Origin: an uncultured Candidatus Saccharibacteria bacterium
GTDB lineage: Bacteria; Patescibacteriota; WWE3; 2-01-FULL-39-13
NCBI GenBank assembly: GCA_965230915.1
Contig: OZ246395.1
Coordinates: 12,019-76,018, forward strand
Direction of reading: 5' to 3'
DNA length: 64,000 nucleotides
In this document: positions 9,218 through 47,718 of the stretch, piece by piece
Layout: each line of letters opens with the position of its first letter
How positions within the stretch are numbered: position 1 is the stretch's first letter
Translations under genes and position numbers: made by a program
Notes under the pieces: model-generated
The model's database searches: none
Told to the model about the DNA's origin: nothing
Seen by the model: only the letters and a program-made list of their open reading frames with translations

Positions 9218-9221
9218 TATT

Positions 9222-9920
9222 ATGGCCAAAAAATATTTAGCAACAACTCAAGAACATTTAGACATCTACGATATTAAAAATGGAATTGTTGTTTTAAAAA
9301 ACGGAAGTGCAGTTTGTATTTTGGAAACTAACGCAATTAACTTCGACCTTTTATCTATGATGGAGCAAGACGCAGCAATTTCTGCATACAGTAATCTTTT
9401 AAATTCATTAACTTTCCCTATTCAGGTTACTATTCGTTCTAAAAAAATGGATATCAGCGATTATTTAGAAAAAGTTAAAGAAGCCGAAAATAAACAGAGT
9501 AATCCCAAAATTAAAGAACAAATAGTTGCTTACAGAAAATTTATTCAAGAAGAACTTGTTACCAAAGAAGAAGTTTTGGATAAAAATTTTTATGTGACGA
9601 TTCCATATAAATTAACAAGCGTAGCAGCAAGTGATCCATTTGGATTCATTACAGATCTAGTCGGATTTCAAGCTAAACAACCAACCCGTGTAAATACAGA
9701 TAAAGTTTTAGAAGAAGCACGCGCAGATTTAGAACCAAAGAAAAACTTTTTGATAAAAGAATTTGCAAGAATTGGTATAAAAGCAACCGCTTTAAATACG
9801 GCAGATTTGATCAAGCTATTCTATGAAATATATAACAGTGAAACATCCCAGTCACAGAGAATTCGAGGAAATGTTGATGATTTTACGTCAGCTTTAGTTG
9901 AACCAAAGTTAAAGATTTAA
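9222..9920 (+). CDS. VirB4-family N-terminal-domain-like protein (separate ORF, same frame as the downstream ATPase)
   Basis: MAKKYLATTQEHLDIYDIKNGIVVLKNGSAVCILE..NFDLLS..EQDAAISAYSNLLNSLTFPIQV resembles the extreme N-terminus of TrsE/VirB4 proteins; the ORF-track start at 9165 overlaps the upstream gene, so the ATG at 9222 is preferred. Confidence 0.45.
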   Translation: MAKKYLATTQEHLDIYDIKNGIVVLKNGSAVCILETNAINFDLLSMMEQDAAISAYSNLLNSLTFPIQVTIRSKKMDISDYLEKVKEAENKQSNPKIKEQIVAYRKFIQEELVTKEEVLDKNFYVTIPYKLTSVAASDPFGFITDLVGFQAKQPTRVNTDKVLEEARADLEPKKNFLIKEFARIGIKATALNTADLIKLFYEIYNSETSQSQRIRGNVDDFTSALVEPKLKI

Positions 9921-9926
9921 AATAAT

Positions 9927-12936: not shown

Positions 12937-14046
12937 TTACCAGTTAGCTTTCATGGGCATGGCGAGAAAAAAGTAATTGTCTTGGTCTTTAATATTAAAC
13001 AAACCAGGCTTAAGAGGATCAGAAGCCTTAAAAATAATTTCGGCTTCATCGATATTACTTAAAAAGTCTAATAAATATTTTGCGTTAAAAGTTATTTCGA
13101 TATTGTCACCATCTAGCTCACCGTTAATTTTGCTTTGGTTGCTTCCGGTTTCTGACGGTTGAGATTTTGCCTCAATTACATCTTCATTTGCAGAAATTTT
13201 TACGCTGTTTCCGATGTCTCGTGAAAAAATGCTGGCTAACTTTATTGCATTCAAAAGTTCTGTTTTTGAAACGTGAATTTCCGATGTAAATTCTTTTGGC
13301 AAAACTGCTTCGTAATCAGGATATTGTCCTTCGATCATCCTAAGTTGAGCTTCTGAATCTTCTGCGCGAACAACGACTGCATTTTTATCTGTGTTAATTA
13401 TTATTTCTAAACTTTCAGATTTTGGTGCAAAACTTTTTACAATATCGGTAAATGCTTTTGCAGGAATAACACATCGAACTTCGCTAGAAACTTCAGATTC
13501 TAATGCTAATTTATATTCGGCCATTCGATATCCGTCGGTACACGCAATGACTAAAGTCTTGCCTTCTGCTTTTAGAAATACTCCAGTTAAAACAGGTCGT
13601 GATTCATCTGCAGCAGATGCAAATTGAACTTGTGAAATTGCCTTAACAAGTTCTGAAGATTTAATAATTAATTTATCTCCATCTTCTGGTAATTCTAAAT
13701 TTGGAAATTCACTTGCAGGAATTGTTGTTAAATTTGCTTTTGCTTTATCAGTTGTAACTCTTAAGTTTGATCCGTCTAAAGTTAATTCAATTTTCTCATC
13801 GCTTAATTGATTAACAAAATCAATTAATATTTTTGCTGGAACAGTTATTTCGCCAGGCTGATCTACTTTTGCACCAACCCATGATGAAATTGTAATTTGT
13901 AAATCTGATGAAGTAATTTTTACACGACCTTTGTCGGTACGAATTAATAAGTTTGATAAAACGGGAAGTGGACTTCGATTATTTACCGCACGACTAACGA
14001 GTGCCAAACCTTTCTGAAAATTTTCTTGTAATACAGTGAATTGCAT
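12937..14046 (-). CDS. dnaN: DNA polymerase III beta sliding clamp
   Basis: MQFTVLQENFQKGLALVSRAV..PVLSNLLI; 369 aa with three-domain clamp organisation. Confidence 0.9.
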   Translation of the reverse strand: MQFTVLQENFQKGLALVSRAVNNRSPLPVLSNLLIRTDKGRVKITSSDLQITISSWVGAKVDQPGEITVPAKILIDFVNQLSDEKIELTLDGSNLRVTTDKAKANLTTIPASEFPNLELPEDGDKLIIKSSELVKAISQVQFASAADESRPVLTGVFLKAEGKTLVIACTDGYRMAEYKLALESEVSSEVRCVIPAKAFTDIVKSFAPKSESLEIIINTDKNAVVVRAEDSEAQLRMIEGQYPDYEAVLPKEFTSEIHVSKTELLNAIKLASIFSRDIGNSVKISANEDVIEAKSQPSETGSNQSKINGELDGDNIEITFNAKYLLDFLSNIDEAEIIFKASDPLKPGLFNIKDQDNYFFLAMPMKANW

Positions 14047-26575: not shown

Positions 26576-27247
26576 TTGGTGACAAGCTACAAAGAGTTTA
26601 TCAAATTTGGTGACTCTAATGTTAAAATGACTTCTATGTTAAAACCTATGTTTTTTAGCGGCCACAAGCACACTTTTTATATTAACTTGATTATTTGGTC
26701 TTTGGTTATTTCTTTGGTTGTTTTACTTACCAGTTTTGTGTTTCCAAAATATTACAGAGCATACAATACTTATTACTTTGACGCGCAATATACGACTAAT
26801 GATTCAGTAATTGATTTTTCACCTCAACAATTAGCCGAAAAAACTTCTGAGAATGTTAAAGGAATTATAGAAAGTCCTAATTTTTTAGGTCGAGTTTTAG
26901 AAAATGCCGGTTACGAAAACACTACTAAATCTCGTGAAAAATTGAGCAAGAAGATATCTGTTAAAAAAGTCGGGCCTCAAGTTTTATATGTAGAAATTAA
27001 TGGATACCGCAACTTTGAGACACTAGAAAAAACCATAAGTTCATTAACGCAGGTTTTGGGTACTGAGGTTTCAGCAATAAATAGTAATGGAAATATTATG
27101 GTAGCGTTTAATGAGGTTAATGAAAAGCCAAACGTCGAAGAAGTTCAGATTTACCCGTGGCTAAATGCCGGAATCGCCTTATTGCTTGTAATAATTTTGG
27201 GAGTTTCTTTGAATGAGTTTAAAAAGTATATTGAAAAAGATGGATAA
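26576..27247 (+). CDS. two-TM protein with periplasmic loop (Wzz-like topology), hypothetical
   Basis: TM near the N-terminus and TM at the C-terminus flanking a domain of about 150 aa; ATGGATAA overlap with the downstream RNase H. Confidence 0.35.
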   Translation: MVTSYKEFIKFGDSNVKMTSMLKPMFFSGHKHTFYINLIIWSLVISLVVLLTSFVFPKYYRAYNTYYFDAQYTTNDSVIDFSPQQLAEKTSENVKGIIESPNFLGRVLENAGYENTTKSREKLSKKISVKKVGPQVLYVEINGYRNFETLEKTISSLTQVLGTEVSAINSNGNIMVAFNEVNEKPNVEEVQIYPWLNAGIALLLVIILGVSLNEFKKYIEKDG

Positions 27248-27641
27248 GCTAATAATAAATACAGACGGAGGAGCAAGGGGTAATCCCGGGCCAGCCGCTA
27301 TTGGTATAACTTTAAGATCTGAATCAGGTGAAACAATTTTAAAGTATAAAGAAAAAATTGGTGAAACTACAAACAACGTTGCAGAATACCGCGCCTTAAT
27401 AAAAGGATTAGAATTAGCATTAGAAAACAAGGCAAGCGATGTCGAATGTATTTTAGATAGCGAATTGGTTGTAAAACAAGTGAACGGATTGTACCGCGTA
27501 AAAGAAGAAAGTTTAAAAATCCTTCATTCTGAGGTTAGAAATTTGTTATCAAAATTTAATTCTCACATGGTAAAACATGTTAAGAGAAAGGATAATTCTG
27601 CCGCAGATAAGCTTGTAAACGAAGCTCTCGACAACATTTAA
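27240..27641 (+). CDS. rnhA: ribonuclease H (RNase HI-like)
   Basis: INTDGGARGNPGPAAIG...NNVAEYRALI..L (DEDD-type catalytic residues); start moved to the internal ATG at 27240. Confidence 0.7.
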   Translation: MDKLIINTDGGARGNPGPAAIGITLRSESGETILKYKEKIGETTNNVAEYRALIKGLELALENKASDVECILDSELVVKQVNGLYRVKEESLKILHSEVRNLLSKFNSHMVKHVKRKDNSAADKLVNEALDNI

Positions 27642-27642
27642 T

Positions 27643-28386
27643 ATGGAATCTGCTGCCATAAAAAACGATTTAATAAAAACCCTTAAGCTAATTAAGGCTG
27701 AAGAAATTCCGGTTTTAACCGAAGAAATTACAAGCTATTTTATTGCTTCAGATAAATCATCACAGCTTAATAAACCTTCGGTTCTAACTGCTTTAAATGA
27801 GTTACAACAAGAGAGAAAAGTTTTTTCCGAAGATGAATTTATAAGTTTTTCTGAAAGCTTTAAAGATAAAATAAAAGACAGGTTAGATTTAGAAGAGTCG
27901 ACGAGGGAAAAGTCTAAATATACAAAAAATCTATTTAAATTTTTAGAAAATTTACCATTTGTAAAATTTGTTGCGGCAAGCGGAAGTTCACCTTTTGGCC
28001 GAATTGCTAAAAACGAAAAAATAAAATTAATAGTAGTTGCAGATAAAGAAACCAGGCATTTATCAGAATTCTGTATAAAAAAATATTTACAGCTCAATCG
28101 GGCTTATAAAAACTTTGAAGTCGAAAAAGTTTTTGAAAGCGATAATCTTAAGTGGCATCGACCAGACGCTGAAAGCGCAATAAAACTTTTAAATATGATT
28201 GTGGTTATAAGTAAAAATAAAACCTACGAGAATTTTATGGCAACTAATAATTGGATCTTTGATATTTTTTCTAATTATCCACTAGAAAAAGTAAGCTGGG
28301 GATTCAGGGTTACAAAAAATATTGATATCAAAACTGCACCAATTTTTAAAACTTTAAACAAATTTTTGACGCCAAAAGCATTATAA
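27643..28386 (+). CDS. hypothetical cytoplasmic protein
   Basis: No recognisable motifs; convergent with the giant secreted-protein gene. Confidence 0.35.
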   Translation: MESAAIKNDLIKTLKLIKAEEIPVLTEEITSYFIASDKSSQLNKPSVLTALNELQQERKVFSEDEFISFSESFKDKIKDRLDLEESTREKSKYTKNLFKFLENLPFVKFVAASGSSPFGRIAKNEKIKLIVVADKETRHLSEFCIKKYLQLNRAYKNFEVEKVFESDNLKWHRPDAESAIKLLNMIVVISKNKTYENFMATNNWIFDIFSNYPLEKVSWGFRVTKNIDIKTAPIFKTLNKFLTPKAL

Positions 28387-31300
28387 ATCGTATTTCTCTC
28401 TGTAAGTTTTTTGCAGGTTTTCGACTTCTTCTTTAAATCCTTTTGGCATTTGGTCTATAGGTGTTTCCATCGTAAAGTTTCCTTTAGCAGAATATCTATT
28501 TAGGATTTCTTCGAGATCTGCTGCTATTTCTGCCTGAATAACTTCAGGATCAACTTTTGTCTTAACAGGGGTCATTACGGTTTGGGCGACCATTTGTGTC
28601 GGAGATTTTTCTTTTGTAATTGGTGCTGTGCCTTCGTTATCGCAAGTAGACGAAAGTTGTCCGCCTGTACAATATTGGCGTAATCCCATTTGGAATAATC
28701 CGTAGTCGCAATAACCGATATTTGCTCCCCATCGGCCTTCGGTGAATTCATCAGGTCGGCAGGATCCGTAATATCCTCTTAAAGCTCGCTTAACTGCATC
28801 GAAGTTAGATTCACTAATTGTTCCGTTTCTGTAGTCGACTCCAGCTTTTTGTTTTAGTACACGAGCAGCCAATGTTGGCGCGACTTGAGGATTGCATCGT
28901 CCATCTTTTCGATATTCGCTTTGTGGTGTTCCCGCTGCCCATCTTTGAATGTTCCAATTCTTTTGTTCTGTAGGGTCTGTTATATCGAAGACTGTGTCGT
29001 CAGTAATTTGGAACGGACCAGTTGCAGTTACGCTATTTCGTGAACATGAATTTAAGCTGCCGCCTCCTTCTATATCTAATATAACGGCGATAAGTCTTGC
29101 AGGAACGCCTGAATCTAATCCTACATTTTCGATTTGTTTTAATGTATCTCCACTAATATTGTTGCTACCCGGTGCAGAACTAAAGAAGTTTCCGCCGCCA
29201 CGGAGTGATGATAAGAATGGTTCGCACAACCCAATTGCCCGTGTAGGAAAGTCTGATGGAAGGCTTCCCGCTGCTTCGCTTAAACAATATTGTGCGGCCT
29301 GACTAAAGTGGTCGGTGTATTCGATGTACATACTTCTGGTATCGCTGCCGCTAATACTTAAATCAAGACAATCTTGCGGTCCACCAAGCCCAAATCTTGC
29401 CAACGCATTTGATAACGGGTTACTTCCGCAATTAGGTGTGGTATTGTTTCCACTCGCGTTAGATCCTGAAATACCTCCAAGTGAAAGTTTAAGTTCGAGC
29501 TCGTGTTTGCTAGGCTTTGGATCAAAATAAGAGTCGCTGACTCCCGGTACCTTATATAAACCCTGAAAAACCTGGAAGTCATAATTGCTTCTATTTTGGT
29601 TTAATTTACCCATAAAACGGCTTGGGACATATCCATATAAAAGATATTGGCGTTCACCAAATGTGCATGACCATTTTTCGTCTCCTTCATGATAGACCCC
29701 ATTTATATCTGTATAGCCTTCTTCTTCATCTTTTTCACAGTGATAGTTAAATAATTTGGCACCAGCTGCATAAAGACTTTTTATAAAGTCTGAAAATATA
29801 TTTCCTACAGAAATTGAAATATCCTCTTTATCTTCTATGTCCTTTGCTAATCTGAAAGTTTGATTTCCGGTTTGGCAGAATCCTTTTTCGCAATTTGGAT
29901 CATCTGTGACTTCTAATAAATCTTCGGCATCCATAGTTGCGCATTCTCCACCAGGAGCCCAAGTTTCACATTTTGTACAGTCGATTGGTGGAGGTGGTCT
30001 GTCGTCGACAATCCCACAAGCTCCTTCATTTGGACAGGTACATACTGGTCTTTGTGTACAGTTAGGATTGTCCGAATATGGAGCGCTACTATTTGTAATT
30101 TGGAAATGAACTTTAAGTTCCATTTTGTTTTCAGCAAGCTCACGTGGAGTTACAGGAATTGAACATCCTGGTAAAGTTTCAATCGGGACTCCATATTTTT
30201 CGCCATCATTACCGTTAGGGTTGTAAATTGGAAGACCAGCTGACTTATGTAGGTTCCCTCCATTTGGATTTCCACATGTACTGATTTGTGTTGATTGGCC
30301 GGTTGTTTTGTCGGTTACCCAATATTCAATATAGTAGCCCCAGTCGACAGGTTGAGGACACTCGGGTTGACCGTTCCATACTTTTACTGAAAACTGATTT
30401 TCTGCAGTTTTGTTTTCGATTAATATGTGAGCGCCTTGGCAATATGGCTGAGCTTCTTCATATGGAGGAGCTGCTTGAGCCTGTGCCTGTTTTGGATTTA
30501 CCGGATTTATATTATCGAGCGAATAAGAAGTTCCAATCTCTTCATCAGAATCTGTTGGGGTTTTTAGAACAACATCCGCAATATAACTTTGTGTATTTTT
30601 ATTTTGATCAGCATTTTGTTTTGCTAAAAGTTGTTGCTCTTGAGCATAATAGTCTTCTAATGATGTTGCTAATATAGTGCTTCTTCCGATTGGAACTGTG
30701 TCGCCGGGTTTTTTTACAACTGCAGCACTAAAATCCCATAGAACTTTGTCCATCGCCTGACGATCGGCTGGTTCTAAAAGTTTAATTTTATCTGCTTCAT
30801 TCATTGAAAATTTAATTAGATGTCCCATACCTATACAGGCTTCTGGTGGATCACCCGGACCACATTTTTCACCGCTTTTATCGTTCTTTAAACACTCTTC
30901 ACCTGTAGATGGATCGCAAACAGATGACTGCAAACATCCGATGAACGCCTGATTAAAAGCTAAATTATCAATTGTAGATTTGCGGCCTGGTTTAATTCCA
31001 TCTTGGCTGGGATAAACACGAGCCTGAAATGCTGCATAAGTCTCTGTTGTTCCTTGCTTTTCTGGTTGAGCCTGAATTTCAAGACCTCCTTGATATATAA
31101 ATCCTGGAATATGCGAAGTTATATAAAGAGGCAAAGATCTTGGCGTAATAGTACTGGGTTTATATTGAGCAATAGCCTTATTATTAATAAAGTCATCATT
31201 TGTAGCTGCCAATGAACCGATATATTTTTGCGTCATTGTACTAAAATCGGTGCTCCAATATTTAGTAGGGGCTATAACAATTCTTTCAGTTACAACCGCG

Positions 31301-32226
31301 CTAACAATATCTCCTTCATTTTCTTTTTCATCGGTTGCGCTGGCATAAATTTGCCAAGGACCTTTTCCATCTGGCGATGGGTCTTGATGTCCTATAACTT
31401 GGCCTCTATATAAAGTCTGGTCTGTTTTAATCGGGCCAACGCATTGGCTTTCACCTGTTCCACCGGCGCTTGTTAGCAAAGCACAAACTTTTACGTTGTT
31501 AACTTTTGGAGCCGTTGCAGTAACTTTATTTGTAATACTTGAGCCACGTCCAAATCCGATCCAGCCATAATCTTTTGCATATAAGAATGTTTCACCTTTT
31601 CCATTACCTTCTAGGATTTGAACTTCAACAACATCACTTATCGTTCCGAGTGATCCTCCAACGTTGTAAGTATCGTAGTGGCGATTGAATTTCATCGCGA
31701 ATCCGGTGTAACCGGTAAATGGAGCATTACATCTTGAACAATTTAATCCGTCTTTCTTGAATCCGACAATTGTATGGTCTGACGTCATTACATCGCCTTC
31801 GCACATATTTCTTTTTATCCATTTAGCCGGAGCATAGCTGGCTAAATCGACAGTGTTAGGGTCAACATTTCCTGCAACCATTGTGAAACCTGCATCAAAG
31901 CCTTCGCATTGAACATTTCCGTTTTCGGTTGCCCATGAAGTATCTCTCAAGTGATAAATATAATTTGCGTCATATGCGAATTCTTCATAAACTTCACCGG
32001 TAGCGTTTTTAACTATATAGAAGCCAGGCATTCCCATTACGGTGCTTTGCACGTTATAGAATCTTTCTCCACTGCTGATTAAATTCGCACTGCCCTGACC
32101 AGAAGGGTTAAAGTAATCAAGCATATCAACACAAGTTTGGGCATAGCTTTTTGTAGGGGCAATTAGCGCAGCCGCAAAAATTGCGAGTACGATTATTAAA
32201 TTTTTAGATCTAATAAAATAATTCAT
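28381..32226 (-). CDS. giant (1281 aa) secreted Cys-rich protein with weak C-terminal SLT/lysozyme-like motifs
   Basis: Signal peptide MNYFIRSKNLIIVLAIFAAALIAPTKSYA; more than 50 Cys spread along the chain; a C-terminal segment (about 28700-29080) has E...S..TATGPFQI and GLFQM motifs reminiscent of lytic transglycosylases. Confidence 0.55.
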   Translation of the reverse strand: MNYFIRSKNLIIVLAIFAAALIAPTKSYAQTCVDMLDYFNPSGQGSANLISSGERFYNVQSTVMGMPGFYIVKNATGEVYEEFAYDANYIYHLRDTSWATENGNVQCEGFDAGFTMVAGNVDPNTVDLASYAPAKWIKRNMCEGDVMTSDHTIVGFKKDGLNCSRCNAPFTGYTGFAMKFNRHYDTYNVGGSLGTISDVVEVQILEGNGKGETFLYAKDYGWIGFGRGSSITNKVTATAPKVNNVKVCALLTSAGGTGESQCVGPIKTDQTLYRGQVIGHQDPSPDGKGPWQIYASATDEKENEGDIVSAVVTERIVIAPTKYWSTDFSTMTQKYIGSLAATNDDFINNKAIAQYKPSTITPRSLPLYITSHIPGFIYQGGLEIQAQPEKQGTTETYAAFQARVYPSQDGIKPGRKSTIDNLAFNQAFIGCLQSSVCDPSTGEECLKNDKSGEKCGPGDPPEACIGMGHLIKFSMNEADKIKLLEPADRQAMDKVLWDFSAAVVKKPGDTVPIGRSTILATSLEDYYAQEQQLLAKQNADQNKNTQSYIADVVLKTPTDSDEEIGTSYSLDNINPVNPKQAQAQAAPPYEEAQPYCQGAHILIENKTAENQFSVKVWNGQPECPQPVDWGYYIEYWVTDKTTGQSTQISTCGNPNGGNLHKSAGLPIYNPNGNDGEKYGVPIETLPGCSIPVTPRELAENKMELKVHFQITNSSAPYSDNPNCTQRPVCTCPNEGACGIVDDRPPPPIDCTKCETWAPGGECATMDAEDLLEVTDDPNCEKGFCQTGNQTFRLAKDIEDKEDISISVGNIFSDFIKSLYAAGAKLFNYHCEKDEEEGYTDINGVYHEGDEKWSCTFGERQYLLYGYVPSRFMGKLNQNRSNYDFQVFQGLYKVPGVSDSYFDPKPSKHELELKLSLGGISGSNASGNNTTPNCGSNPLSNALARFGLGGPQDCLDLSISGSDTRSMYIEYTDHFSQAAQYCLSEAAGSLPSDFPTRAIGLCEPFLSSLRGGGNFFSSAPGSNNISGDTLKQIENVGLDSGVPARLIAVILDIEGGGSLNSCSRNSVTATGPFQITDDTVFDITDPTEQKNWNIQRWAAGTPQSEYRKDGRCNPQVAPTLAARVLKQKAGVDYRNGTISESNFDAVKRALRGYYGSCRPDEFTEGRWGANIGYCDYGLFQMGLRQYCTGGQLSSTCDNEGTAPITKEKSPTQMVAQTVMTPVKTKVDPEVIQAEIAADLEEILNRYSAKGNFTMETPIDQMPKGFKEEVENLQKTYREKYDL

Positions 32227-33251
32227 TATCTTTTTATGGCTTCTAACATTAGGTATCCCGTTCCTGATCGGTTTCCTGAGACTCTAACATTTGCTTCTAA
32301 AATGTATACAGGAACAATATAATTATCAACCGCAAGGTAAGCAATGTGACCGCGCACAATATTTATAGATTCAATAGGATCTCCGATCGGATAAGTTCCA
32401 TTAACTAACTTAGCTTTTGTATTTTCGGTTTGAAGATCTCTTCTTATTTCATTTGTATCTAATAGTTCGTAGTCACCGACCGAACTCCCAATAGTTCCTG
32501 ATGCCTCATAATATAATCTTGAGATGTCACCCTTACTATTTAGCCAGATGGTAATTGTATTTGGAACTAAGCTCGATTCCTTATCAATAATAGGGAGGTC
32601 TTTCACCCTGGCTTGATATTTAAGTTGAATTAAATTTGCTCCACGGGCCTGATCTGTTAATTCAGGGTGGTCAGAAGTCGCTATCACATAAGAATTTTCG
32701 AAATATTCATACGTTGTATTTGGTAATTCGAGTTTTCTAATAAAATCTTCGGCACTTTGCTTGTAAAGATCTATATTGGCCGAAACAGCAAAATTTGTAT
32801 TCTCTGATTCTGACTGAACAGCCAAATCGGTATAAGTTAATTCGCCTATTGATGGATAAACAACCAAGTTCTTTTGTCCTTCGCTGGCTAAAATTACCCT
32901 TCTGAGTTCAGCATCATTTGAAGTGGAAACTTTAGTTAACCCCAATTTATTCGGAAGTCCATCTGCAAAATCCTCGGGAAAATTATTAGCAGGATTAAAT
33001 TCATACATTGGTAGACGATCATAGAATGGAGCTGTTAACGAAAAATCAGGTGACACATTAAATTTGGTATTCGGGGTCGTAACAGTTTGAGATGGGTCTG
33101 GCTTTAATTTATCCTCGATTTTAACATCGGCCAATGGATAAGGCGCAGAAGTTTGGTTCAAAATTTCATCGCGTGCAATTTGGTACAACAAATATCCCAT
33201 GATTGCGATGATTATTATAAATGTAATTGTTAGTATTAATTTTCTAGTCAT
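32226..33251 (-). CDS. membrane-anchored extracytoplasmic protein (341 aa), hypothetical
   Basis: N-terminal TM LILTITFIIIIAIMGYLLY; the internal ATG at 33249-33251 abuts the upstream stop at 33253 (coupled); its stop overlaps the downstream start (ATGA at 32226). Confidence 0.45.
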   Translation of the reverse strand: MTRKLILTITFIIIIAIMGYLLYQIARDEILNQTSAPYPLADVKIEDKLKPDPSQTVTTPNTKFNVSPDFSLTAPFYDRLPMYEFNPANNFPEDFADGLPNKLGLTKVSTSNDAELRRVILASEGQKNLVVYPSIGELTYTDLAVQSESENTNFAVSANIDLYKQSAEDFIRKLELPNTTYEYFENSYVIATSDHPELTDQARGANLIQLKYQARVKDLPIIDKESSLVPNTITIWLNSKGDISRLYYEASGTIGSSVGDYELLDTNEIRRDLQTENTKAKLVNGTYPIGDPIESINIVRGHIAYLAVDNYIVPVYILEANVRVSGNRSGTGYLMLEAIKR

Positions 33252-33252
33252 A

Positions 33253-36200
33253 TTATCTCGACATATTACACGAAGCCGACCCCACACATGATTTTGGAAC
33301 GTTCTCCGGAATATATGAGCCAGGTTCTGGCGTGTCACTGTATCTAATTAATCTTAATGGTTTCCCTGGTCCAAGACATTCAACACTTGTGTTTACAAAT
33401 TCGTAGTGTAAGTGAGGTCCTGTTGAATTTCCCGATGTGCCCATTTCTCCAATTATCTGATTGGCTTCTATTTGTTGGCCAGTACTTACGGCTATTGAAG
33501 ACATATGGCCATATATAGTAGCAAAGCCTAATGGAGATATAACTTTTACATAATGGCCATATCCATCTGGATCATCGCCTCTGAAAGCTGTTCCATTATG
33601 GGTAGCTTTTATAGCTTGTCCTATACCCGAGGCCATGTCCAAAGCTTCTGCATTTTTATGGCTGTCATATGTATATGCTGTTTGAGTCAATGTAAAAGGT
33701 TGTGTCGGCCATCCTGCGGGACAAACCGAACAGCCACCTGCTCCAAATTTTGTACTTACCGATGCCTCGCCCTTTTTACCAGGGTCTTCTTCAACTGTTA
33801 CTTCTATATTGTTTAGATAAGTTCCATCCGTTGTTAAAATGTTTTCTAAGATAAATGGGGGAAGAGTTAATATTTGTCCCGGTTGAATTGTTCGTGACGG
33901 CAAATCTCCAAGATTTGGGAGGGCAACTTTTCCATAAGTAGCGTCTGATGTAACTTCAACAATACCTCCTCCGCTTGCGCATGATTTCGAATATAAAAGA
34001 GTATCGGTAAAGCCATCAATATTTAGAGGAATTGGATTTGGTGCATTTGTTGCCTCATCTATTGCCGTATCAGTAATGTTTCTAATTGTGATTGTGTATT
34101 CAATTCCGCTTCCGTTAGAAACCTGTCTGGCTGTTTTTGTAACCTGAAATTTTTTCGAGCTAATAACATCTGAATATGCGCCGCCTCCGGTTGACGGTTC
34201 CATCGGCGCCATCATTGCGATAATTCCTATTACAAAAATCATAGGGATGATAAAGCAAGAACATCCCCCAAGAACAATTCCTAATACAACACGGCTGACT
34301 GTACGAAGTTTCGCCATGAGCATTTCCCACGATGACTTGAATGCAAAAGAGAATTTTCCCTGCAGAATCTTTGATGTAAAATTCCAAACGACATCGCCAA
34401 CAGCAGCTAGTATGTAGCTGATTCCCCCGGTTACAATACCGGCCGAATTTGAAAGTATAAAGCCTAGGCTTTTTAGAACTACAGGACTCAAAAACTTTGT
34501 TAATGTTTTTGCAACAACGCTGGTTGCTATAGTCGGATTCGCGCCAAGGCCAGAGAATTTTGTACCAATACCTGTAAGGAATTTTACAAAGCCCCATTTT
34601 TCAACAGCACCCATTAAAAGTGTCTCGTCGCCAAAGCCGGAATTACGTAAAAGATCTTTGAAAGGTTCGAAGATCTTAACGGCAGTTTTAATTAATGCAT
34701 TATTGCCAGCGTATCCTCCCCAAAGAATTTCGCGGTATAAGAAGGTGTACATCGCATTTGCTGTACGGTTGTATTTATTTAATAAACCTGCAAAAGGTGC
34801 TGTAAATTGTTTTACTTTTCCTTCTTTTACAATTCTCGCTAAGAATTCAAAGCGATCAGCTAAACCTAGTGCAAATGAACCTGGATGATTGTTGGGATCA
34901 GATAAATATTCTAATAAGGCAAAACCTCCGGCATTCGGTGTATTCAAGTTTGTAATGTTTTGGCTAAGTTTTCCAACCTTCTCGGCTGTAGTTAGTCCTA
35001 ATCCTTCTGCCAATATTTCGAAACTTGTTGTAGGTACGTTGCCTGCAACAATCGAATTGCCAGCATTTCTAAGTTCGTCCATGAAGTTTCTTGCACGGTC
35101 GAGGTCGGCCAAAAGGTAGTCTGGGTCAAAATCTGCAATATTTGCAAAACCACAATCTAATAATAATTGGCCACCCGCGCCTGTAGATTTTCCCCATGAC
35201 TTATCTAAAACATCATATAAGCTGTAGTCCCCAAAAAGACCGTTAGATTTTTGTAGGCCGAAGCCGCTGGTAACTGCGGGTGCTCCATCTGGTACGATTT
35301 TTATTGCCGTTTGTGTCCATTGCGCATTGTTTGTTGGCCCTTGTCTCCAGCTTACGTATGTTTCGGCTTCGAATAATTTTTTCGGAGCGAGTCTTGAAAT
35401 TAGTTTTAAATCTTTAAGTTCGCCGGCTTCAAATGCAAGTCCGGTTGCTGTACCAATAAAGCCATTAAGCTTTCTTGTATTTCCAATAATATTAATTTTA
35501 TCGAGGTATTTTACATATTCGCTGACTGTTCCCCATCTAGGGTCTGTGAAGGGTAGGACGTTAAGCATTTTACTCGAAAGCAAAACGACTTCTATGAATT
35601 TTTTGCTTTCAATACTTTCTAATATTTCTTTTGTGGTAGATGCAAAGAACAAATTGTTAGCAATTTTCGATGACCTTGTAGCCGCCATTATTCTATCTCT
35701 TGCGATAGCTCCGGCAGAATTGATTCTTGTTGTTGCAGCCCCTACTTCGGCGTTTAATGTTGTAGGAATTCGAGTATCCGCAAAACTGACAAAAGGAGTG
35801 TCTCCTGGGATAGCGTATAAACTATTGAATTTAGCAAGTTCCGCTTCTCCTACGATTGTTTTTGCCGCATTGCTAATTCCGGCAAGAACTTCTGGCTGGT
35901 GCAATTTCGCCTGCAATTCAGCCTCAAGTGCTCGTTGAGTTTTTAATCTATCTAAATATCCCTTTTTTAAAAGTTGCTTTTCGCTTTCAAGAACAATACG
36001 AGGCCTGGGTGGTTGAGGTGTACCTGGTGGAGAACCTGCTGGTATAGCTGGTCTTGGTGCTGCTAAATTAGGAACGCTAAATAAATTGGCGTCGCTAAGT
36101 TGAGGAACATCTAGCTCGAATGCACTTGCGAATTCTGCACCTGCGGCATCTTTTAATTTTTCCTGATATAGACCTTGGTTTACAAACTCGCTTCTTAAAA

Positions 36201-37233
36201 ATGCTTTTGAAAATTCCTTGTTTTCGCCGGTTAGGTTATCCCAGATAGCATTTTGTTTTGCCGTCGCAGTTGCTGCATCTCCTAAGCCTAGGGCTTTTCT
36301 TAATTTTGCATCGTTGTTAAGGATATCGTTAAATGCATCATTTGCGTTTGTGATTCCATGTAAAGCGGCTTGCTCCTGGAATGTTTGTGAAAATGCTCCT
36401 TTGGATTCATAAATGCCAGGTCTGCCTGTTGCAGGATTTATTCCGCGTCTTTCTTTAACCTTTAATACGTCGTCTAAATTTATTCCAAGTTCACTGGCAA
36501 CAGCCCTGTTATAAGCAGTAATACTGCCTGTGTGATAAATGGAACGTGGGGTTGCACTTTCCATGTACCCTGACAACGCAGTTAGTTGTCCTGATAAATC
36601 TCTGTAGGCTTTATAACTTGCTTCACGGTTCGTACCCTGCTCCCAAACTTGCCTGTCTTCGTATCTGTCAGCTCCAATTGCTTGAACTAGTTTTATTTTT
36701 GATTGTGGACCTCCAATGCCGCCGACATCGACAAGGTCTTCCGTATCAACAACGCTAATTCCCAGGCCTTTAGCCACTCGAGTTCCTAAATTTTGTGGCT
36801 TAAGAACTTCTGACCCTTTAACTGTTGTTAAGTTACCTTTTGTTAATGCTTCAAGTACGTCGCTTCGTCGGTCGCCGGCAAGCTCATCAAGGTTCATGAT
36901 ATCGTTGCGAGTTTGTTGATTTAGCTTTTGTAATGTCTGTAGTGGCTCACTTATGAGTTTCGTTAAATCAACCTTTGTATTAACGCCTTTTACATCTAAT
37001 AATGCTTCCTGGCCCCCGGCAACAAAGGTGCTAATGATTGCTTCATCGACTTCATCTGAAATAGTGGCTCTTACCTGAAGGGTAGTTAAGTTTTGTTTGA
37101 AATCTTTGTCGTAAAAGCCAATTACATCTTTTACAATTCGATCCTTTATAGATCTTGGAACATCAATCGGAGCTCTATAAAATTCTTTTACAAAACTTCT
37201 TAATGTTAAATCGTCATTTTTTGGTGGCGGCAT
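33253..37233 (-). CDS. giant (1326 aa) protein with internal TM cluster and C-terminal M23/LytM metallopeptidase domain
   Basis: No signal peptide; hydrophilic N-terminal region of about 900 aa; 3-4 TM helices near residues 930-1010; C-terminus HNGTAFRGDDPDGYGHY...GTSGNSTGPHLHYEF (HxxxD and HxH zinc ligands). Confidence 0.6.
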   Translation of the reverse strand: MPPPKNDDLTLRSFVKEFYRAPIDVPRSIKDRIVKDVIGFYDKDFKQNLTTLQVRATISDEVDEAIISTFVAGGQEALLDVKGVNTKVDLTKLISEPLQTLQKLNQQTRNDIMNLDELAGDRRSDVLEALTKGNLTTVKGSEVLKPQNLGTRVAKGLGISVVDTEDLVDVGGIGGPQSKIKLVQAIGADRYEDRQVWEQGTNREASYKAYRDLSGQLTALSGYMESATPRSIYHTGSITAYNRAVASELGINLDDVLKVKERRGINPATGRPGIYESKGAFSQTFQEQAALHGITNANDAFNDILNNDAKLRKALGLGDAATATAKQNAIWDNLTGENKEFSKAFLRSEFVNQGLYQEKLKDAAGAEFASAFELDVPQLSDANLFSVPNLAAPRPAIPAGSPPGTPQPPRPRIVLESEKQLLKKGYLDRLKTQRALEAELQAKLHQPEVLAGISNAAKTIVGEAELAKFNSLYAIPGDTPFVSFADTRIPTTLNAEVGAATTRINSAGAIARDRIMAATRSSKIANNLFFASTTKEILESIESKKFIEVVLLSSKMLNVLPFTDPRWGTVSEYVKYLDKINIIGNTRKLNGFIGTATGLAFEAGELKDLKLISRLAPKKLFEAETYVSWRQGPTNNAQWTQTAIKIVPDGAPAVTSGFGLQKSNGLFGDYSLYDVLDKSWGKSTGAGGQLLLDCGFANIADFDPDYLLADLDRARNFMDELRNAGNSIVAGNVPTTSFEILAEGLGLTTAEKVGKLSQNITNLNTPNAGGFALLEYLSDPNNHPGSFALGLADRFEFLARIVKEGKVKQFTAPFAGLLNKYNRTANAMYTFLYREILWGGYAGNNALIKTAVKIFEPFKDLLRNSGFGDETLLMGAVEKWGFVKFLTGIGTKFSGLGANPTIATSVVAKTLTKFLSPVVLKSLGFILSNSAGIVTGGISYILAAVGDVVWNFTSKILQGKFSFAFKSSWEMLMAKLRTVSRVVLGIVLGGCSCFIIPMIFVIGIIAMMAPMEPSTGGGAYSDVISSKKFQVTKTARQVSNGSGIEYTITIRNITDTAIDEATNAPNPIPLNIDGFTDTLLYSKSCASGGGIVEVTSDATYGKVALPNLGDLPSRTIQPGQILTLPPFILENILTTDGTYLNNIEVTVEEDPGKKGEASVSTKFGAGGCSVCPAGWPTQPFTLTQTAYTYDSHKNAEALDMASGIGQAIKATHNGTAFRGDDPDGYGHYVKVISPLGFATIYGHMSSIAVSTGQQIEANQIIGEMGTSGNSTGPHLHYEFVNTSVECLGPGKPLRLIRYSDTPEPGSYIPENVPKSCVGSASCNMSR

Positions 37234-39170: not shown

Positions 39171-40268
39171 ATGTACTTAACAATGCGAAAATTACTTGCA
39201 ATTTTTATATTAGCTATATCTCCGCTTTTTATTTTTTCTAACCGAGTATCAGCAAGAACAACACCAGACCCTGGCTACGGTATGGAGGCTCAATATATCG
39301 GTGAACCAGAAGTCACTCCCGAAAAAATTAAATTCAAGTTTATTGTAATGAATACTGGCAAGCTTAAATCTTGGGGCATAGATGTATATGTGGTCGGCTT
39401 TACAAGTAAGGGTTGTACTTATAGTCCTTCGCCCAATTTTAATATTGATGATCCTAATAATTCTTTTGGTTACAGTGGTCACCCTCCTACAGAATTTGAG
39501 GCAGAATGTACGATTACTACAGCTGTAGCTTCTGACCTTGATGGAGATATGTATCTCGATATATATAATGATGGAGAAGCCTGGGGGCCAAATAGTGATG
39601 TGATTATTGGCAGTAAGGCAATACAATATGATTTCGGATTTGGATCGGTAAGTTTCGACGGGTATCCAGAGGCACTAGGTGGAAATGTTTTTAAATTTAA
39701 ATTAACAGCTGGTCCTCGCGCAGTTGGTATAAATACTAATTTAGTTGTATCAAGTCCTTCGATACCTGCTTCATGGAATGGCGGGGGTGTATATAACTGT
39801 CCTGAAGTTAATTTTCCAGCATTAGGTGGAGTGGAAACAAAAGAAATTCAATGCGATTTTAACCAATTATCTCCGGGGAATTATAATATAGCAGCTGTTC
39901 TTGGTAAGCCAAGCGTCAGTGATACTGGAGGTGACACATTTGATACAACCGCGATAACCATTGTTGCCCCAGGGCAGCCACCGGTTCAACCTGGGGGCCC
40001 AGGTGGACCACCCATTGTTCCGCAATATAGTTTATTTGACTTGAATTCGTTCTTTGGACTTTTGCAAAATATAATAATTGCAATCGCTGTTGTTTCAGGT
40101 ATTTTTATTATTCCTTATGCATTTATATTAATGGCTAGTGGAAACCCTGAAAAAATTAAGCAAGGTACGGAATGGTTAAAGTCGATTTTATGGGGGTACT
40201 TGGTTGTCTTCTTAGCTGCAACCTTAATAAGATTTGTCGGAAGCGATATCTTAAGCCTCGGGATTTAA
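39171..40268 (+). CDS. secreted 365-aa protein: N-terminal extracellular domain, Pro/Gly linker, C-terminal VirB2-like hairpin (paralog 2)
   Basis: Signal peptide; beta-rich domain; GQPPVQPGGPGGPPIVPQ linker; C-terminus IIIAIAVVSGIFIIPYAFILMASGNPEKIKQGTEWLKSILWGYLVVFLAATLIRFV aligns with the loop motif of ORF 42329. Confidence 0.45.
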   Translation: MYLTMRKLLAIFILAISPLFIFSNRVSARTTPDPGYGMEAQYIGEPEVTPEKIKFKFIVMNTGKLKSWGIDVYVVGFTSKGCTYSPSPNFNIDDPNNSFGYSGHPPTEFEAECTITTAVASDLDGDMYLDIYNDGEAWGPNSDVIIGSKAIQYDFGFGSVSFDGYPEALGGNVFKFKLTAGPRAVGINTNLVVSSPSIPASWNGGGVYNCPEVNFPALGGVETKEIQCDFNQLSPGNYNIAAVLGKPSVSDTGGDTFDTTAITIVAPGQPPVQPGGPGGPPIVPQYSLFDLNSFFGLLQNIIIAIAVVSGIFIIPYAFILMASGNPEKIKQGTEWLKSILWGYLVVFLAATLIRFVGSDILSLGI

Positions 40269-40384: not shown

Positions 40385-42220
40385 CTAATCTTTCACTTCT
40401 ATATTAAATAGGGCGCTTTTTATTTGAAGTGCTCCTGGGGCTCTAAGGTTAAATATAGCTTTAAAATCGTCTCCGCTAACTTTCATTTCTCCTTTATTAG
40501 TTTTAATTTTTACTTCTGAAGTTTCTCCACCTGAAGAATAAGTTACACTTACGTCGCTTACTTTGGTTATGCCTGACTTATCAGCGACATCATCGCGTGA
40601 CCATGTATCGTCGATGTCTTCTCCCCAACAACTTTCTGCATCAACTTGAGATAAGTGCTTTTGGTTATCTTTATCTTCTTTATACAAAGCGACGGCGCCA
40701 ACAATATCTGCAAATTCTTTTTCGGTTAACCATGGATGTTTGCGACCGCATGCTTCGCCGCCTCTAGTTTTGTACCAGCCTTTATAGAACCATGGGGAAC
40801 CACCTTTGCTTTCATAAGCTTCGCTTGTCCAACAATCTCTAGAACCGCATTTTGTATCCCAGCCACCCTTGGTTTTGTGACCTAAACTAGTGTATTGATA
40901 GTTATATCCACCGGATGAAGCGGCATATAGTGCTGAAAATATTTGATCGGTATCATTTCCGATCATTACCATACCTTTTGTTTCTTCAACTGCTTGATGC
41001 CATCGTGCAGCGGAGGATGCGGTGGCCTTTGATGACGACCAAACCTGACAACTTTCCGTGGTGCAAATCCTGCCTCCGCCCCCGCCACTACCATTGCGCC
41101 ATCCGACATATGCCATTGCGTATGTACGTGCAGCTATAGCTTGAGCTTTTAGAGCTTCCATTGGCCAATCGGCCGGCATTTCTGCGAGTCCTTTTAGATA
41201 TTTCCCATCTAGTGACATTTCCCCTTTATCTGTATTAATAGTATCTGGAAGATCCGGCTTGGTAATATCGACATCACCATAATATGCTTTCAAAATATCT
41301 TTGTAGTTTTGGCCAGATTCAGCACGGCCTTTTGCCCCATATTGGCTTAAACCCTGTCTATGTGGAGCTCCAAAAGAGAACCCTGCAAAGGCCGGTGAAA
41401 ATCCGGGATTATAATTAGCTTGTGATGCAGCGTCGCCCGTAGATGGAACATCTCCCACACTAGTAGTAAATGTTCCAGTTTTAGCTTCTAATAGTGATTT
41501 TTGTTTTGCAGATAATTCGTTAAGCTTGCGCTCTAGGCTGGCTTTTTCGTTTGAAACATTCCTAAGTTGTGCCTGTTGAGTCGCCGCCTGGGCTGATAGT
41601 TTTGAAACTAAAGTTTGAACCTCTTTTTTTTGCGTCTCTACCTGTGCTTTTATAGCTTCAACTTCCTTTTTATCACTTTCATATTGGGCAATATTTCCAT
41701 TGAGAGAGCCTATAAATTGTTTTGAGCTGTCGATAAAGCTTAAATGATATGCGGCATCTTCTGCAGCCTTAGAAAGGCTTGAAGTTGAGAAGAGCATCTC
41801 TAATAAGCTTTGCTGGTTCGATATATATAAACTTCTAACTGTTTTATCGCGGATTTTTGTGCTTGAATCTAGCTCAATCTTTTTTAGATCAAGTTTCTTA
41901 TTTAGGTTTGAGATATCATCTGTTAGCCCTTTGATTTGTGAATTTAAAGAATTAATCTGGCTTTGATTAACATTAATCTGGCCAGTTAAGTTCTTTATAG
42001 CTGCAGATATTGAATCGGCTTTCGCTTTTATATCGCTTAATTTGCCTTCTGTTTCTTTGATATCTTTCTCAAGCTCTTCTATTTCGGCATCTTCATCAGC
42101 ATATGAATAGGTGGTAAACTGGCTAGATATAGCCAACACAGATATGAAAGTGTAAAGAGTGAGCAAAAAGATCTTAAGTAATGTCTTTGGGGCTCTATTT
42201 CGATTTGGCAGCATCTCCAT
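40385..42220 (-). CDS. membrane-anchored coiled-coil protein with SpoIID/LytB domain (peptidoglycan-remodelling)
   Basis: N-terminal TM; about 200 aa of heptad-rich coiled coil; SpoIID signature ...ALKAQAIAARTYAMAYVGWRNG...; strong Gly-rich loops. Confidence 0.62.
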   Translation of the reverse strand: MEMLPNRNRAPKTLLKIFLLTLYTFISVLAISSQFTTYSYADEDAEIEELEKDIKETEGKLSDIKAKADSISAAIKNLTGQINVNQSQINSLNSQIKGLTDDISNLNKKLDLKKIELDSSTKIRDKTVRSLYISNQQSLLEMLFSTSSLSKAAEDAAYHLSFIDSSKQFIGSLNGNIAQYESDKKEVEAIKAQVETQKKEVQTLVSKLSAQAATQQAQLRNVSNEKASLERKLNELSAKQKSLLEAKTGTFTTSVGDVPSTGDAASQANYNPGFSPAFAGFSFGAPHRQGLSQYGAKGRAESGQNYKDILKAYYGDVDITKPDLPDTINTDKGEMSLDGKYLKGLAEMPADWPMEALKAQAIAARTYAMAYVGWRNGSGGGGGRICTTESCQVWSSSKATASSAARWHQAVEETKGMVMIGNDTDQIFSALYAASSGGYNYQYTSLGHKTKGGWDTKCGSRDCWTSEAYESKGGSPWFYKGWYKTRGGEACGRKHPWLTEKEFADIVGAVALYKEDKDNQKHLSQVDAESCWGEDIDDTWSRDDVADKSGITKVSDVSVTYSSGGETSEVKIKTNKGEMKVSGDDFKAIFNLRAPGALQIKSALFNIEVKD

Positions 42221-42820: not shown

Positions 42821-43180
42821 ATGTCTTGTGACTCATTTTTAGATTGTATAAACGATCCAATCGTAGATAACAAATTACCCGCAGAGAATATTGTTGTAGA
42901 TGTCAGCACTACTACTATTTACGTTGTAAACTTATCCTTATTTGCTTTTCAAGTAATATTATTTGTGGCGGTTGTTTATTTTATATTTAAAGGCATTCTT
43001 TCCATAATTCGCGCTGATTCTTCAGAAGCATTCGAAAAATTCCAAGGGGCTATTACTAATGCTGTTTTTGCTGCCGTTGGCTTAGTTCTGCTAGTTGGCT
43101 CAAGATTTATATTCGTGGCTGTTTTGAGAATGGTGGGGATTCCAGATGCGGAAAATCTCTTTATTAACTTACCTTTCTAG
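42821..43180 (+). CDS. VirB2/TrbC-like two-helix protein (paralog 4)
   Basis: Loop DSSEAFEKFQGAITN is homologous to the loop of ORF 42329; flanked by two hydrophobic helices. Confidence 0.45.
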   Translation: MSCDSFLDCINDPIVDNKLPAENIVVDVSTTTIYVVNLSLFAFQVILFVAVVYFIFKGILSIIRADSSEAFEKFQGAITNAVFAAVGLVLLVGSRFIFVAVLRMVGIPDAENLFINLPF

Positions 43181-47345: not shown

Positions 47346-47718
47346 TGGTGGAGATGGAGGGAATCGAACCCTCGTGCTAATAGATTTTCCGTTCAAAGTA
47401 TTACAAGCTTCGCAGTTTTAAAAATTTATATAAACCTAGTAAAACTGCAAAAGGTGTTTATATAAATGATTCCTTACTTTCGTAAAGCGTGTCTTGCGAC
47501 TTCCAATGTAGGTTGAGCTTAATAGAAAGACATTGGCAAACTTTGATCTATTAAACTGCTGATGGATAATTCCGTTCGTTTAGATTAAGCGTAAGCTATT
47601 TCGTAAACGTCAGCTGTAACGTTGTTATTGACGTTTGATTTTTGATTCAGTTTTAAGACTTATATCAGGTCTGCTTGCTTCAGACGAAGTGTCTGCTAGG
47701 CGATGCCTTGACATCCCC
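47346..47718 (-). ncRNA. ssrA: tmRNA (SsrA), 373 nt
   Basis: 5' GGGGAUG... and 3' ...GGUUCGAUUCCCUCCAUCUCCACCA form a tRNA-Ala-like acceptor stem with the G3-U70 wobble; internal candidate tag frame ending ...ADVYEIAYA-UAA; sits next to smpB. Confidence 0.8.

Follow-up and report, generated by a model that had tools for sequence, protein, structure and literature searches.

Members of the Patescibacteria encode type IV secretion systems (T4SSs) that are related to the conjugation machinery of monoderm bacteria and are often located beside dnaA and dnaN (Quinonero-Coronel 2025, PMC12102498). These systems include TrsD, PrgI, a VirB6-like protein and arrays of VirB2-like pilins; VirB1 homologues are scarce, some of them carrying additional M23 or LysM domains, and the function of VirB1 may fall to other hydrolases (PMC12102498). 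Here we describe an operon of three genes, A, B and C, in a 64-kb window of a Candidatus Saccharibacteria contig ("the window" is the whole stretch of DNA analysed, and all coordinates are window positions), and we propose, at a probability of roughly 0.6, that it is the wall-processing and surface module of a Patescibacteria-type T4SS.

Two described systems lie closest to it. In S. epibionticum, the gene cluster SEML1_0006-0019 is essential for epibiotic growth (Wang et al. 2023, PMC10633639). SEML1_0007 is a 1113-amino acid (aa) protein in which the only assigned domain is a C-terminal DD-peptidase, and one of its best structural neighbours is a 'Peptidase M23 domain-containing protein' of the candidate phyla radiation; SEML1_0006 is a 643-aa protein with two lysozyme-like domains and a cysteine peptidase/CHAP domain (PMC10633639). 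In pCF10, PrgK, with a LytM-SLT-CHAP domain organization (SLT, soluble lytic transglycosylase), is followed by PrgL, to which it binds, and the LytM domain of PrgK is degenerate (PMC11323569). A review describes the T4SSs of Patescibacteria as unique among those of monoderms for their essentiality and their possible pili (PMC12857230).

Organization of the three-gene operon

Genes A, B and C follow one another on the minus strand (Table 1). A preliminary description of this DNA had presented them as three translationally coupled genes, and both the open reading frame (ORF) calls and the junction sequences agree with this. At the A/B junction the TAA stop codon of gene A is separated by a single base from the ATG of gene B, corresponding to the stop at 33253 and the start at 33251 that had been proposed. 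At the B/C junction the stop codon of gene B and the ATG of gene C share one base, so the overlap at 32226 is real, but the sequence reads TAATG and not ATGA as had been reported. A longer, GTG-started ORF beginning at 33338 is also present for gene B; the MTRK at which the 341-aa product begins also opens the homologues of gene B, in favour of this start.

ORFs of about 1300 codons are not expected by chance, because at the G+C content of the window (~38%) some 6.5% of random codons, or about 1 in 15, would be stops (by arithmetic from composition). Identical products of 1326, 341 and 1281 aa are all on record from one NCBI contig. Tandem repeats were looked for and none were found, and scans for promoters and terminators gave the same result as for shuffled sequence.

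Conservation of gene order and linkage to pilin genes

The order A-B-C is kept in five independent contigs, with 43-65% identity between the products: the window, an 8.7-kb Logan contig (L001), a 98-kb contig (L002), a fragment from Hainich groundwater (L012) and a JGI contig. In L002 the products are 43% (gene A), 49% (gene B) and 64% (gene C) identical to those of the window. We mapped our own hidden Markov models (HMMs), for genes A and B, the gene C core, the gene C head (an N-terminal module described below), the family of a 467-aa polytopic membrane protein encoded beside gene A, and pilins, on every fetched locus, and wherever a related locus has sufficient flanking DNA, T4SS_pilin genes are present together with the same polytopic membrane protein. 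The polytopic family adjoins in L002, L003, L004, L005/L013/L014 and L007, with L016 being too short, and arrays of 2-11 pilin genes are located directly before a giant protein gene with the gene C head in L003, L004, L005/L013/L014, L007 and L016.

The L005/L013/L014 loci contain a distant relative of gene A, of which the N-terminal, transmembrane (TM) and M23 regions are all matched by the family HMM. There this gene is again followed by one for a TM-anchored protein of ~345 aa and converges on a giant protein gene with the gene C head, which itself follows pilin genes, three recognized by Pfam T4SS_pilin and a fourth by the local HMM. In L005 the set is rearranged but complete, and the SpoIID protein and the polytopic family are present alongside. 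The gene A locus adjoins T4SS_pilin genes and the polytopic family in the window, L002, L005, L013 and L014, a location of the kind expected for a VirB1-like gene. The survival of this linkage through rearrangement and divergence argues that the three families work together with pilin and T4SS genes. The preliminary description had held that triplets spread widely in free-living bacteria without T4SS or pilin neighbours would speak against such a role; the triplet is instead rare, pilin-linked and not spread among free-living bacteria.

One locus, L007 (DATKWK010000020.1), is a 5.9-kb contig labelled Candidatus Bathyarchaeia with five pilin-like genes, a 760-aa head protein and the polytopic family. 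As an archaeal-labelled contig bearing this combination of genes, it is probably a mis-binned Patescibacteria-type contig.

Gene A

Gene A codes for a protein ending in a Peptidase_M23 domain (PF01551; E = 8e-21, 74.4 bits against a gathering cut-off of 28.7), which also matches M23 chains in the PDB with E values down to 1e-17. The protein is thus a member of peptidase family M23 by profile, and the bona fide C-terminal M23 domain of the preliminary description, which had allowed that the call might fail profile thresholds, is upheld with a wide margin over the cut-off. Residues D1199, H1243 and H1274-x-H1276 are kept in 23-24 of 25 family members. The His of the canonical HxxxD motif is replaced by Ala or Val across the whole family, and a conserved His1192 is found three residues upstream (SHxxxEAxD). 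Six family-conserved cysteines flank the domain and fit an extracytoplasmic site.

Hydropathy shows no N-terminal hydrophobic segment, in agreement with the lack of a signal peptide noted previously. A cluster of TM helices had also been reported, but we find one strong hydrophobic stretch (aa 975-1017) and one weak one (aa 923-950), both present family-wide, with a Lys/Arg-rich loop between them; five Lys/Arg residues in this loop precede the strong segment.

A word-indexed homologue search with gene A recovered only one full-length relative (44% identity) and missed most of the family, also when a 25-sequence alignment was used as query, and gene A gave no match in pattern scans of genome and metagenome collections. 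An exhaustive HMMER search with a profile built from aa 1-1160, excluding the M23 domain, identified 29 proteins (E<=0.001) among 1.84 billion cluster representatives. With few exceptions these are 1170-1475 aa long, 23 of the 25 aligned members have a C-terminal M23 domain, and the only other Pfam match is a weak one to DUF7927 in a single member of the 25. On these counts gene A represents a small family with a fixed architecture.

The N-terminal region has no match in Pfam, NCBIfam or PHROGs. An AlphaFold model of aa 1-1190, made from the 29-sequence alignment, has a mean predicted local distance difference test score (pLDDT) of 74.6 and a predicted template modelling score (pTM) of 0.71; in it, several mostly helical domains make up the N-terminal region and are followed by helices in the membrane region and by a beta-sandwich at aa ~1025-1165. 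Foldseek comparison of the model with the PDB and with viral models (BFVD) gave no match at E<=0.001, and as modelled the first ~1000 residues are without a solved or viral structural relative.

Giant M23 proteins are also encoded elsewhere in related genomes, at L003:22560-24029 (1561 aa) and as P0005 (1610 aa); the L003 gene lies ~8.5 kb downstream of the L003 cluster of pilin and giant protein genes. No similarity of gene A beyond the M23 domain was detected to P0005 or to the L003 giant, of which 490 N-terminal residues are in the locus. Because the likeness detected is in M23 only, the combination of a C-terminal wall peptidase with a large N-terminal region may have evolved repeatedly.

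Gene B

The gene B product is an anchored protein of 341 aa, as initially described, with a single N-terminal hydrophobic segment (aa 1-27; TM ~5-27) and a hydrophilic remainder; the ectodomain of ~310 aa has no cysteines. This is the bitopic topology of VirB8-like proteins and PrgL. Homologues with 46-50% identity occupy the corresponding place in L001, L002, L012 and the JGI contig. There is no family assignment in Pfam, NCBIfam or PHROGs and no PDB sequence or profile match, the best PDB profile match being to an NTF2-like domain (BRE5) with a non-significant E value of 0.6. No relation was found by hhalign to the positional analogues in L003, L004 and L005, and comparison with PrgL and PrgD gave <1% in each case.

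Gene C

The N-terminus of the gene C product is signal-peptide-like, ending SYA|Q, which bears out the signal peptide initially proposed. More than 50 cysteines had been counted; there are 37, of which ~31, in the core, are invariant among four homologues. The protein has no match in Pfam, NCBIfam, PHROGs, PDB sequences or PDB profiles.

The gene C product has a modular build. Its residues 261-1281 are common to P0007 and P0008 with 64-65% identity, but the N-terminal head is absent from these closest relatives, which bear a different N-terminal domain of ~316 aa. The gene C head recurs in the much more distant giants P0009, P0010, P0011 and those of L005 and L007, once in an internal position, and these distant head-bearing giants share a C-terminal domain that gene C is without. 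There is no PDB or Pfam match for the gene C head, and no PDB match for the N-terminal domain of P0008.

The alternative head of P0007 and P0008 (aa 1-316) includes a GPNEPDLE motif; its identification as a glycosidase of the 'NEP' type resembling glycoside hydrolase clan A was a reading of the motif only, has no profile support and was dropped. The C-terminal domain shared by P0009, P0010, P0011 and L005:9944-13513 has the pattern TGKAMYYG...GYVALLRxGD...GPFLVxDVAA...VDVDY, and its interpretation as an RlpA/3D-like double-psi barrel, likewise a motif reading, was dropped for want of profile support. The gene C head is also found alone in a 355-aa protein in a Thermoflexales metagenome-assembled genome (L006 = JAUQXC010000140.1; L015), where there are no pilin neighbours; the N-terminal part of this protein looks to us like beta/gamma-crystallin-type repeats. 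This occurrence without pilins suggests that the head is a general binding module, not a pilus-docking piece.

The tail of gene C includes a motif that is invariant in the four homologues. When an alignment of the catalytic domains of E. coli Slt70, EmtA, MltC and MltD is compared with the four gene C tails, hhalign aligns 44 columns (P = 0.0028, probability 10.9%) so that E1053 (within LDIEGGG) falls opposite the catalytic Glu of the SLT 'ES' motif and GPFQIT opposite GLMQI. The isolated tail matches nothing in Pfam, including SLT (PF01464), even at E<=10, and has no PDB profile match; an AlphaFold prediction of aa 940-1281 from three sequences has a pLDDT of 43 and is unusable. The SLT-like tail of the preliminary description thus fails at the profile level.

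T4SS and other genes in the window

The 467-aa protein encoded next to gene A has an N-terminal TM segment, a loop of ~150 aa and then at least five TM segments, which is a VirB6-like topology. Four members of its family have no VirB6 or TrbL match in Pfam (other matches are unrelated and non-significant), NCBIfam and PDB profiles give no match, and hhalign comparison of the family with PrgH gives 0.2%. The protein thus has the topology of VirB6, TrbL and PrgH and is located in a T4SS cluster, but is not related to them by profile, and we regard it as a candidate divergent VirB6.

The pilin genes of the window do not form a single array; the VirB2-like paralogues are scattered singly. The 365-aa protein has an N-terminal extension of ~270 aa with four cysteines, and a weak NCBIfam match to a pilin-like conjugal transfer protein in addition to its Pfam match. 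The 139- and 119-aa pilins are alike and match the local HMM at 1e-33 to 1e-42, values that are partly circular in that both are among its seven seeds. The L002 homologue of the 131-aa protein matches the same HMM at 1e-5. The gene coding for the SpoIID protein is conserved beside the pilin genes of the window, of L002 and of L005, and its product may be a further wall-remodelling component of the module.

Table 1. Positions of the operon, its domains and other genes in the window.
Feature	Position	Strand	Description
Gene A	33253..37233	-	1326-aa ORF; N-terminal region, hydrophobic region, Ig-like beta-sandwich, C-terminal M23
Gene A N-terminal region (aa 1 to ~920)	34474..37233	-	Mostly helical, presumed cytoplasmic, without known relative
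Gene A hydrophobic region (aa 923-1017)	34183..34467	-	Kyte-Doolittle scans of the protein and the 25-member family
Gene A Ig-like beta-sandwich (aa ~1025-1165)	33739..34161	-	Presumed extracytoplasmic; AlphaFold model
Gene A Peptidase_M23 (aa 1196-1281)	33391..33648	-	Pfam and PDB matches
Gene B	32226..33251	-	341-aa ORF from ATG; TM anchor and ectodomain
Gene C	28381..32226	-	1281-aa ORF; Sec signal peptide, modular, secreted
Gene C N-terminal head (aa ~30-250)	31477..32139	-	Swappable module
Gene C tail motif (aa ~1034-1080)	28987..29127	-	GVPARLIAVILDIEGGG...TGPFQIT; resembles SLT catalytic Glu and GLMQ
Polytopic membrane protein, 467 aa	37246..38649	+	Divergent from gene A; hydropathy
Small two-TM protein, 131 aa	38698..39093	-	Possibly pilin-like; no Pfam match above threshold
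365-aa protein, C-terminal T4SS_pilin (VirB2-like)	39171..40268	+	PF18895, 30.1 bits against 26.6
Coiled-coil SpoIID protein	40385..42220	-	PF08486, E = 7e-20; family of peptidoglycan remodelling
Two small pilin paralogues, 139 and 119 aa	42329..42748, 42821..43180	+	Local HMM; weak PF18895 match for the 119-aa protein
Core T4SS genes	7340..12335	+	PrgI (VirB3-like) fusion, TrsD-like 251-aa protein, VirB4-like ATPase
dnaN	12937..14046	-	Adjoins core T4SS genes
dnaA	16130..17578	+	Near core T4SS genes
DUF4012 protein, 944 aa	23711..26545	-	Flanks gene C side
Wzz/CpsC-like two-TM protein	26576..27247	+	Flanks gene C side
RNase H	27213..27641	+	Flanks gene C side
247-aa protein	27643..28386	+	Next to gene C; no assigned function

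The core T4SS genes are located in the left part of the window. The PrgI fusion is a 625-aa protein (PF12666, 37.8 bits) with a coiled coil and a CarboxypepD_reg-like end. The 251-aa protein matches TrsD (NF041427) at E = 2e-7, under its cut-off, with TrsD and VirB4 N-terminal matches in the range E = 2e-7 to 2e-8. The VirB4 protein belongs to the CD1110 family (NF045971; 387.5 bits against 325) and has TraG P-loop and AAA_10 domains. Cumulative GC skew reaches its lowest point at 14-16 kb, which fits an oriC in that position. With a VirB4 of monoderm type, and with PrgI, a TrsD-like protein and pilins near dnaA, the window has the characteristics of a Patescibacteria-type T4SS, similar to the mating-pair formation class FATA, in an arrangement already reported for these bacteria (PMC12102498).

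On the gene C side, the genes for the DUF4012, Wzz/CpsC-like, RNase H and 247-aa proteins are syntenic in L002 and the JGI contig, and we found nothing that ties them to the module. In the right part of the window, a tmRNA gene (47346-47718, minus strand; 87 bits) lies directly downstream of smpB (47774-48229, minus strand), which is an ordinary arrangement.

Proposed role of the operon and alternative interpretations

We propose that the conserved operon supplies the cell-wall-processing and surface part of a monoderm, pilus-bearing T4SS of the Patescibacteria type, whose other components (PrgI/VirB3-like, TrsD-like, VirB4, pilins and VirB6-like) would be encoded by genes scattered around the replication origin of the small chromosome. 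Gene A would code for a membrane-inserted protein with its helical N-terminal region of ~900-980 residues in the cytoplasm, as suggested by the missing signal peptide and the Lys/Arg-rich loop before the strong TM segment, and with Ig-like and M23 domains facing outward and stabilised by the conserved cysteines. Local cleavage of peptide cross-links in the peptidoglycan by the M23 domain would let the channel and the pilus through the wall, and the domain might also attack the wall of the host. By analogy, the role would be that of the PrgK-type VirB1 hydrolases of Gram-positive T4SSs, which is also assumed for SEML1_0007 and SEML1_0006 in Southlakia.

Gene B would provide a bitopic partner that is translated with gene A and probably positions or regulates the hydrolase, a role suggested by its position, in which it matches PrgL following PrgK, and not by any other likeness. 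The gene C product would be a Sec-exported, disulfide-rich, modular surface protein; its exchangeable head probably binds a ligand on the host surface, and its tail may be a lysozyme-like, glycan-cleaving domain. The sequences themselves show the genes and their coupling, the M23 domain, the kept order and neighbourhood and the exchange of domains; the topology of the proteins, their enzymatic activity, their physical association with the T4SS and the choice between the cell's own wall and that of the host as target are inferred. The preliminary description had offered a T4SS-associated cell-wall lytic module as one possibility, and the pilin linkage and the above-threshold M23 domain agree with that context, whereas the SLT component assigned to gene C does not stand.

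Several points weigh against this interpretation. The triplet is 21 kb from virB4, with housekeeping genes between them, and the 467-aa neighbour is without a VirB6 or TrbL profile match. There is no profile similarity to PrgK (beyond a weak overlap in LytM), PrgL, PrgD or PrgH, and the gene C head occurs in a head-only 355-aa protein of a Thermoflexales genome that has no pilin neighbours. The peptidase activity of gene A is not assured, since a zinc-ligand His is replaced family-wide and the LytM domain of PrgK is degenerate. The number of membrane spans in gene A appears ambiguous, and if both hydrophobic segments span the membrane once, the M23 domain would fall inside the cell. Finally, the hydrolase tail of gene C is unproven, and its motif-level resemblance to SLT domains may be taken as a lead.

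The operon could alternatively serve the growth or division of the cell itself, with gene A coding for an M23 endopeptidase or an activator like ShyA, DipM or EnvC that acts with the SpoIID protein, and with the nearness of the pilin genes reflecting a shared location of envelope genes close to the origin of a tiny genome. The best NCBIfam matches of the M23 domain are indeed to proteins of the ShyC/ShyA/DipM/MepM/EnvC type, although all are under their cut-offs; the altered HxxxD motif recalls degenerate LytM activators, SpoIID is a conserved neighbour, and the flanking genes of the window include those for L25, LeuRS, FtsJ and RNase H. We nonetheless consider this unlikely. Chance nearness would not be expected to survive rearrangement and divergence as the linkage to pilins and the polytopic protein does (L003, L004, L005 and L007), 29 representatives among 1.84 billion is too narrow a distribution for a core division function, and one would not expect a division hydrolase to come with a secreted 1281-aa protein whose head is swappable.

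An offensive set of effectors would have gene C, and perhaps gene A, coding for a polymorphic toxin or lysin directed against the host wall, gene B for an immunity- or chaperone-like protein, and the head setting the host range, all without dependence on assembly of the T4SS. The failure to find any toxin or immunity family in Pfam, NCBIfam or PHROGs makes this quite improbable, as do the hydrophobic segment of gene A, which suggests residence in the membrane of the producer, and the properties of gene B, which is anchored, large and 46-50% identical between relatives, unlike small immunity proteins. It would account for the swapping of N-terminal domains between close relatives and for the different C-terminal domains of the distant giants that share the head; Sec export and disulfide richness of gene C also fit, as does the lack of a signal peptide in gene A, as in T4SS substrates.

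This same lack of a signal peptide underlies a further reading, for which we see only a slim chance, in which gene A would code for a translocated conduit protein that is fed from the cytoplasm through the T4SS and pilus, inserts into the host membrane by its conserved hydrophobic segments and attacks the host wall with M23, while the gene C head selects the host. Such a conduit can be likened to pb2 in the tail of phage T5. If this were true, genes A and C would specify the long-sought device by which ultrasmall epibionts open a channel into the host.

Tape-measure proteins of the phage T5 pb2 type carry a C-terminal M23 domain, a long helical region and hydrophobic segments, and the order of these features (long helical, hydrophobic, C-terminal M23) is the same in gene A. 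Descent of the operon from a prophage or tail remnant, in which gene A would be tape-measure-like with an M23 lysin and genes B and C would code for tail or baseplate proteins, is however so improbable that we reject it: PHROG tape-measure families match the M23 domain, but all PHROG matches fall within aa 1160-1300 and there is no similarity to pb2-type proteins outside M23; the gene A model is compact and multi-domain, not an extended coiled coil, with no BFVD match and tape-measure entries at a probability <0.1; and phage context is absent, in that a tblastn search against phages with the gene C tail, the only query used, was empty, the 33 of 66 window ORFs of >=100 aa that were scanned against Pfam include no phage structural or integrase family, and the chromosomal position is kept in relatives.

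On the interpretation that the operon is a wall-processing and surface module, genes A, B and C are candidates for the wall-breaching and host-contact steps of a T4SS that is essential for epibiotic growth in the one species of Patescibacteria tested (PMC10633639). The N-terminal region of gene A offers ~1000 residues with a fairly confident model and no solved or viral relative, and the swappable head of gene C points to a determinant of host specificity. With 29 representatives of gene A, the families are narrow, and these features therefore bear on one lineage's version of the machine and not on a general principle.

Comparison with described systems

The arrangement of genes A and B is reminiscent of pCF10, in which PrgK, like the gene A product, is a large membrane-anchored protein with a LytM/M23-type domain and is encoded upstream of the bitopic PrgL (PMC11323569). 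PrgL binds PrgK and is thought to target it to the T4SS (PMC11323569). Unlike the gene A product, PrgK is anchored at its N-terminus and lacks a large cytoplasmic region, the cutting is done by its SLT domain, and pCF10 is without pilins. The preliminary description had drawn a likeness to proteins of this group, and at the level of homology none to PrgK, PrgL or PrgH is detectable by hhalign. Comparison of the gene A family with PrgK gives 2.9% over 75 columns, in M23/LytM only, and that of gene C with PrgK gives <1%, both being weak tests against a single-sequence template. Homology of gene A to VirB1-like proteins of the PrgK/TraG/CD419 type is not supported by these comparisons.

Some of the VirB1 homologues described by Quinonero-Coronel near virB4 at patescibacterial T4SS loci carry an M23 domain, as gene A does (PMC12102498). 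They were found with VirB1, TrsG and CD419 profiles, whereas gene A has no such region, and neither 1300-aa proteins with a domainless N-terminal region of ~1000 aa nor an A-B-C triplet are given there (PMC12102498).

SEML1_0007 resembles gene A in coding for a giant protein with a C-terminal wall peptidase as its sole recognisable domain and in belonging to an origin-proximal T4SS cluster, which in that case includes PrgI, VirB4, a VirB6-like protein and an array of VirB2-like pilins; a gene for a wall glycosidase comes after it (PMC10633639). The peptidase of SEML1_0007, compared here from its description, differs in having a Hedgehog/DD-peptidase (M15-like) fold. The SEML1_0007 and SEML1_0006 genes are directly downstream of virB4 with no anchored protein between them, unlike the arrangement in the window, and gene C is twice as long as SEML1_0006 (643 aa, with clear domains) and has no recognisable domain. 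Patescibacteria T4SSs close to the origin with essential peptidase and lysozyme genes and with pilins have thus been published (PMC10633639, PMC12102498, PMC12857230), and to speak of an undescribed system of a new kind, as was done at first, was an overstatement; the novelty lies in the protein families, without earlier description, that make up what is probably a lineage-specific variant of the wall-hydrolase and surface module in a known type of Patescibacteria T4SS.

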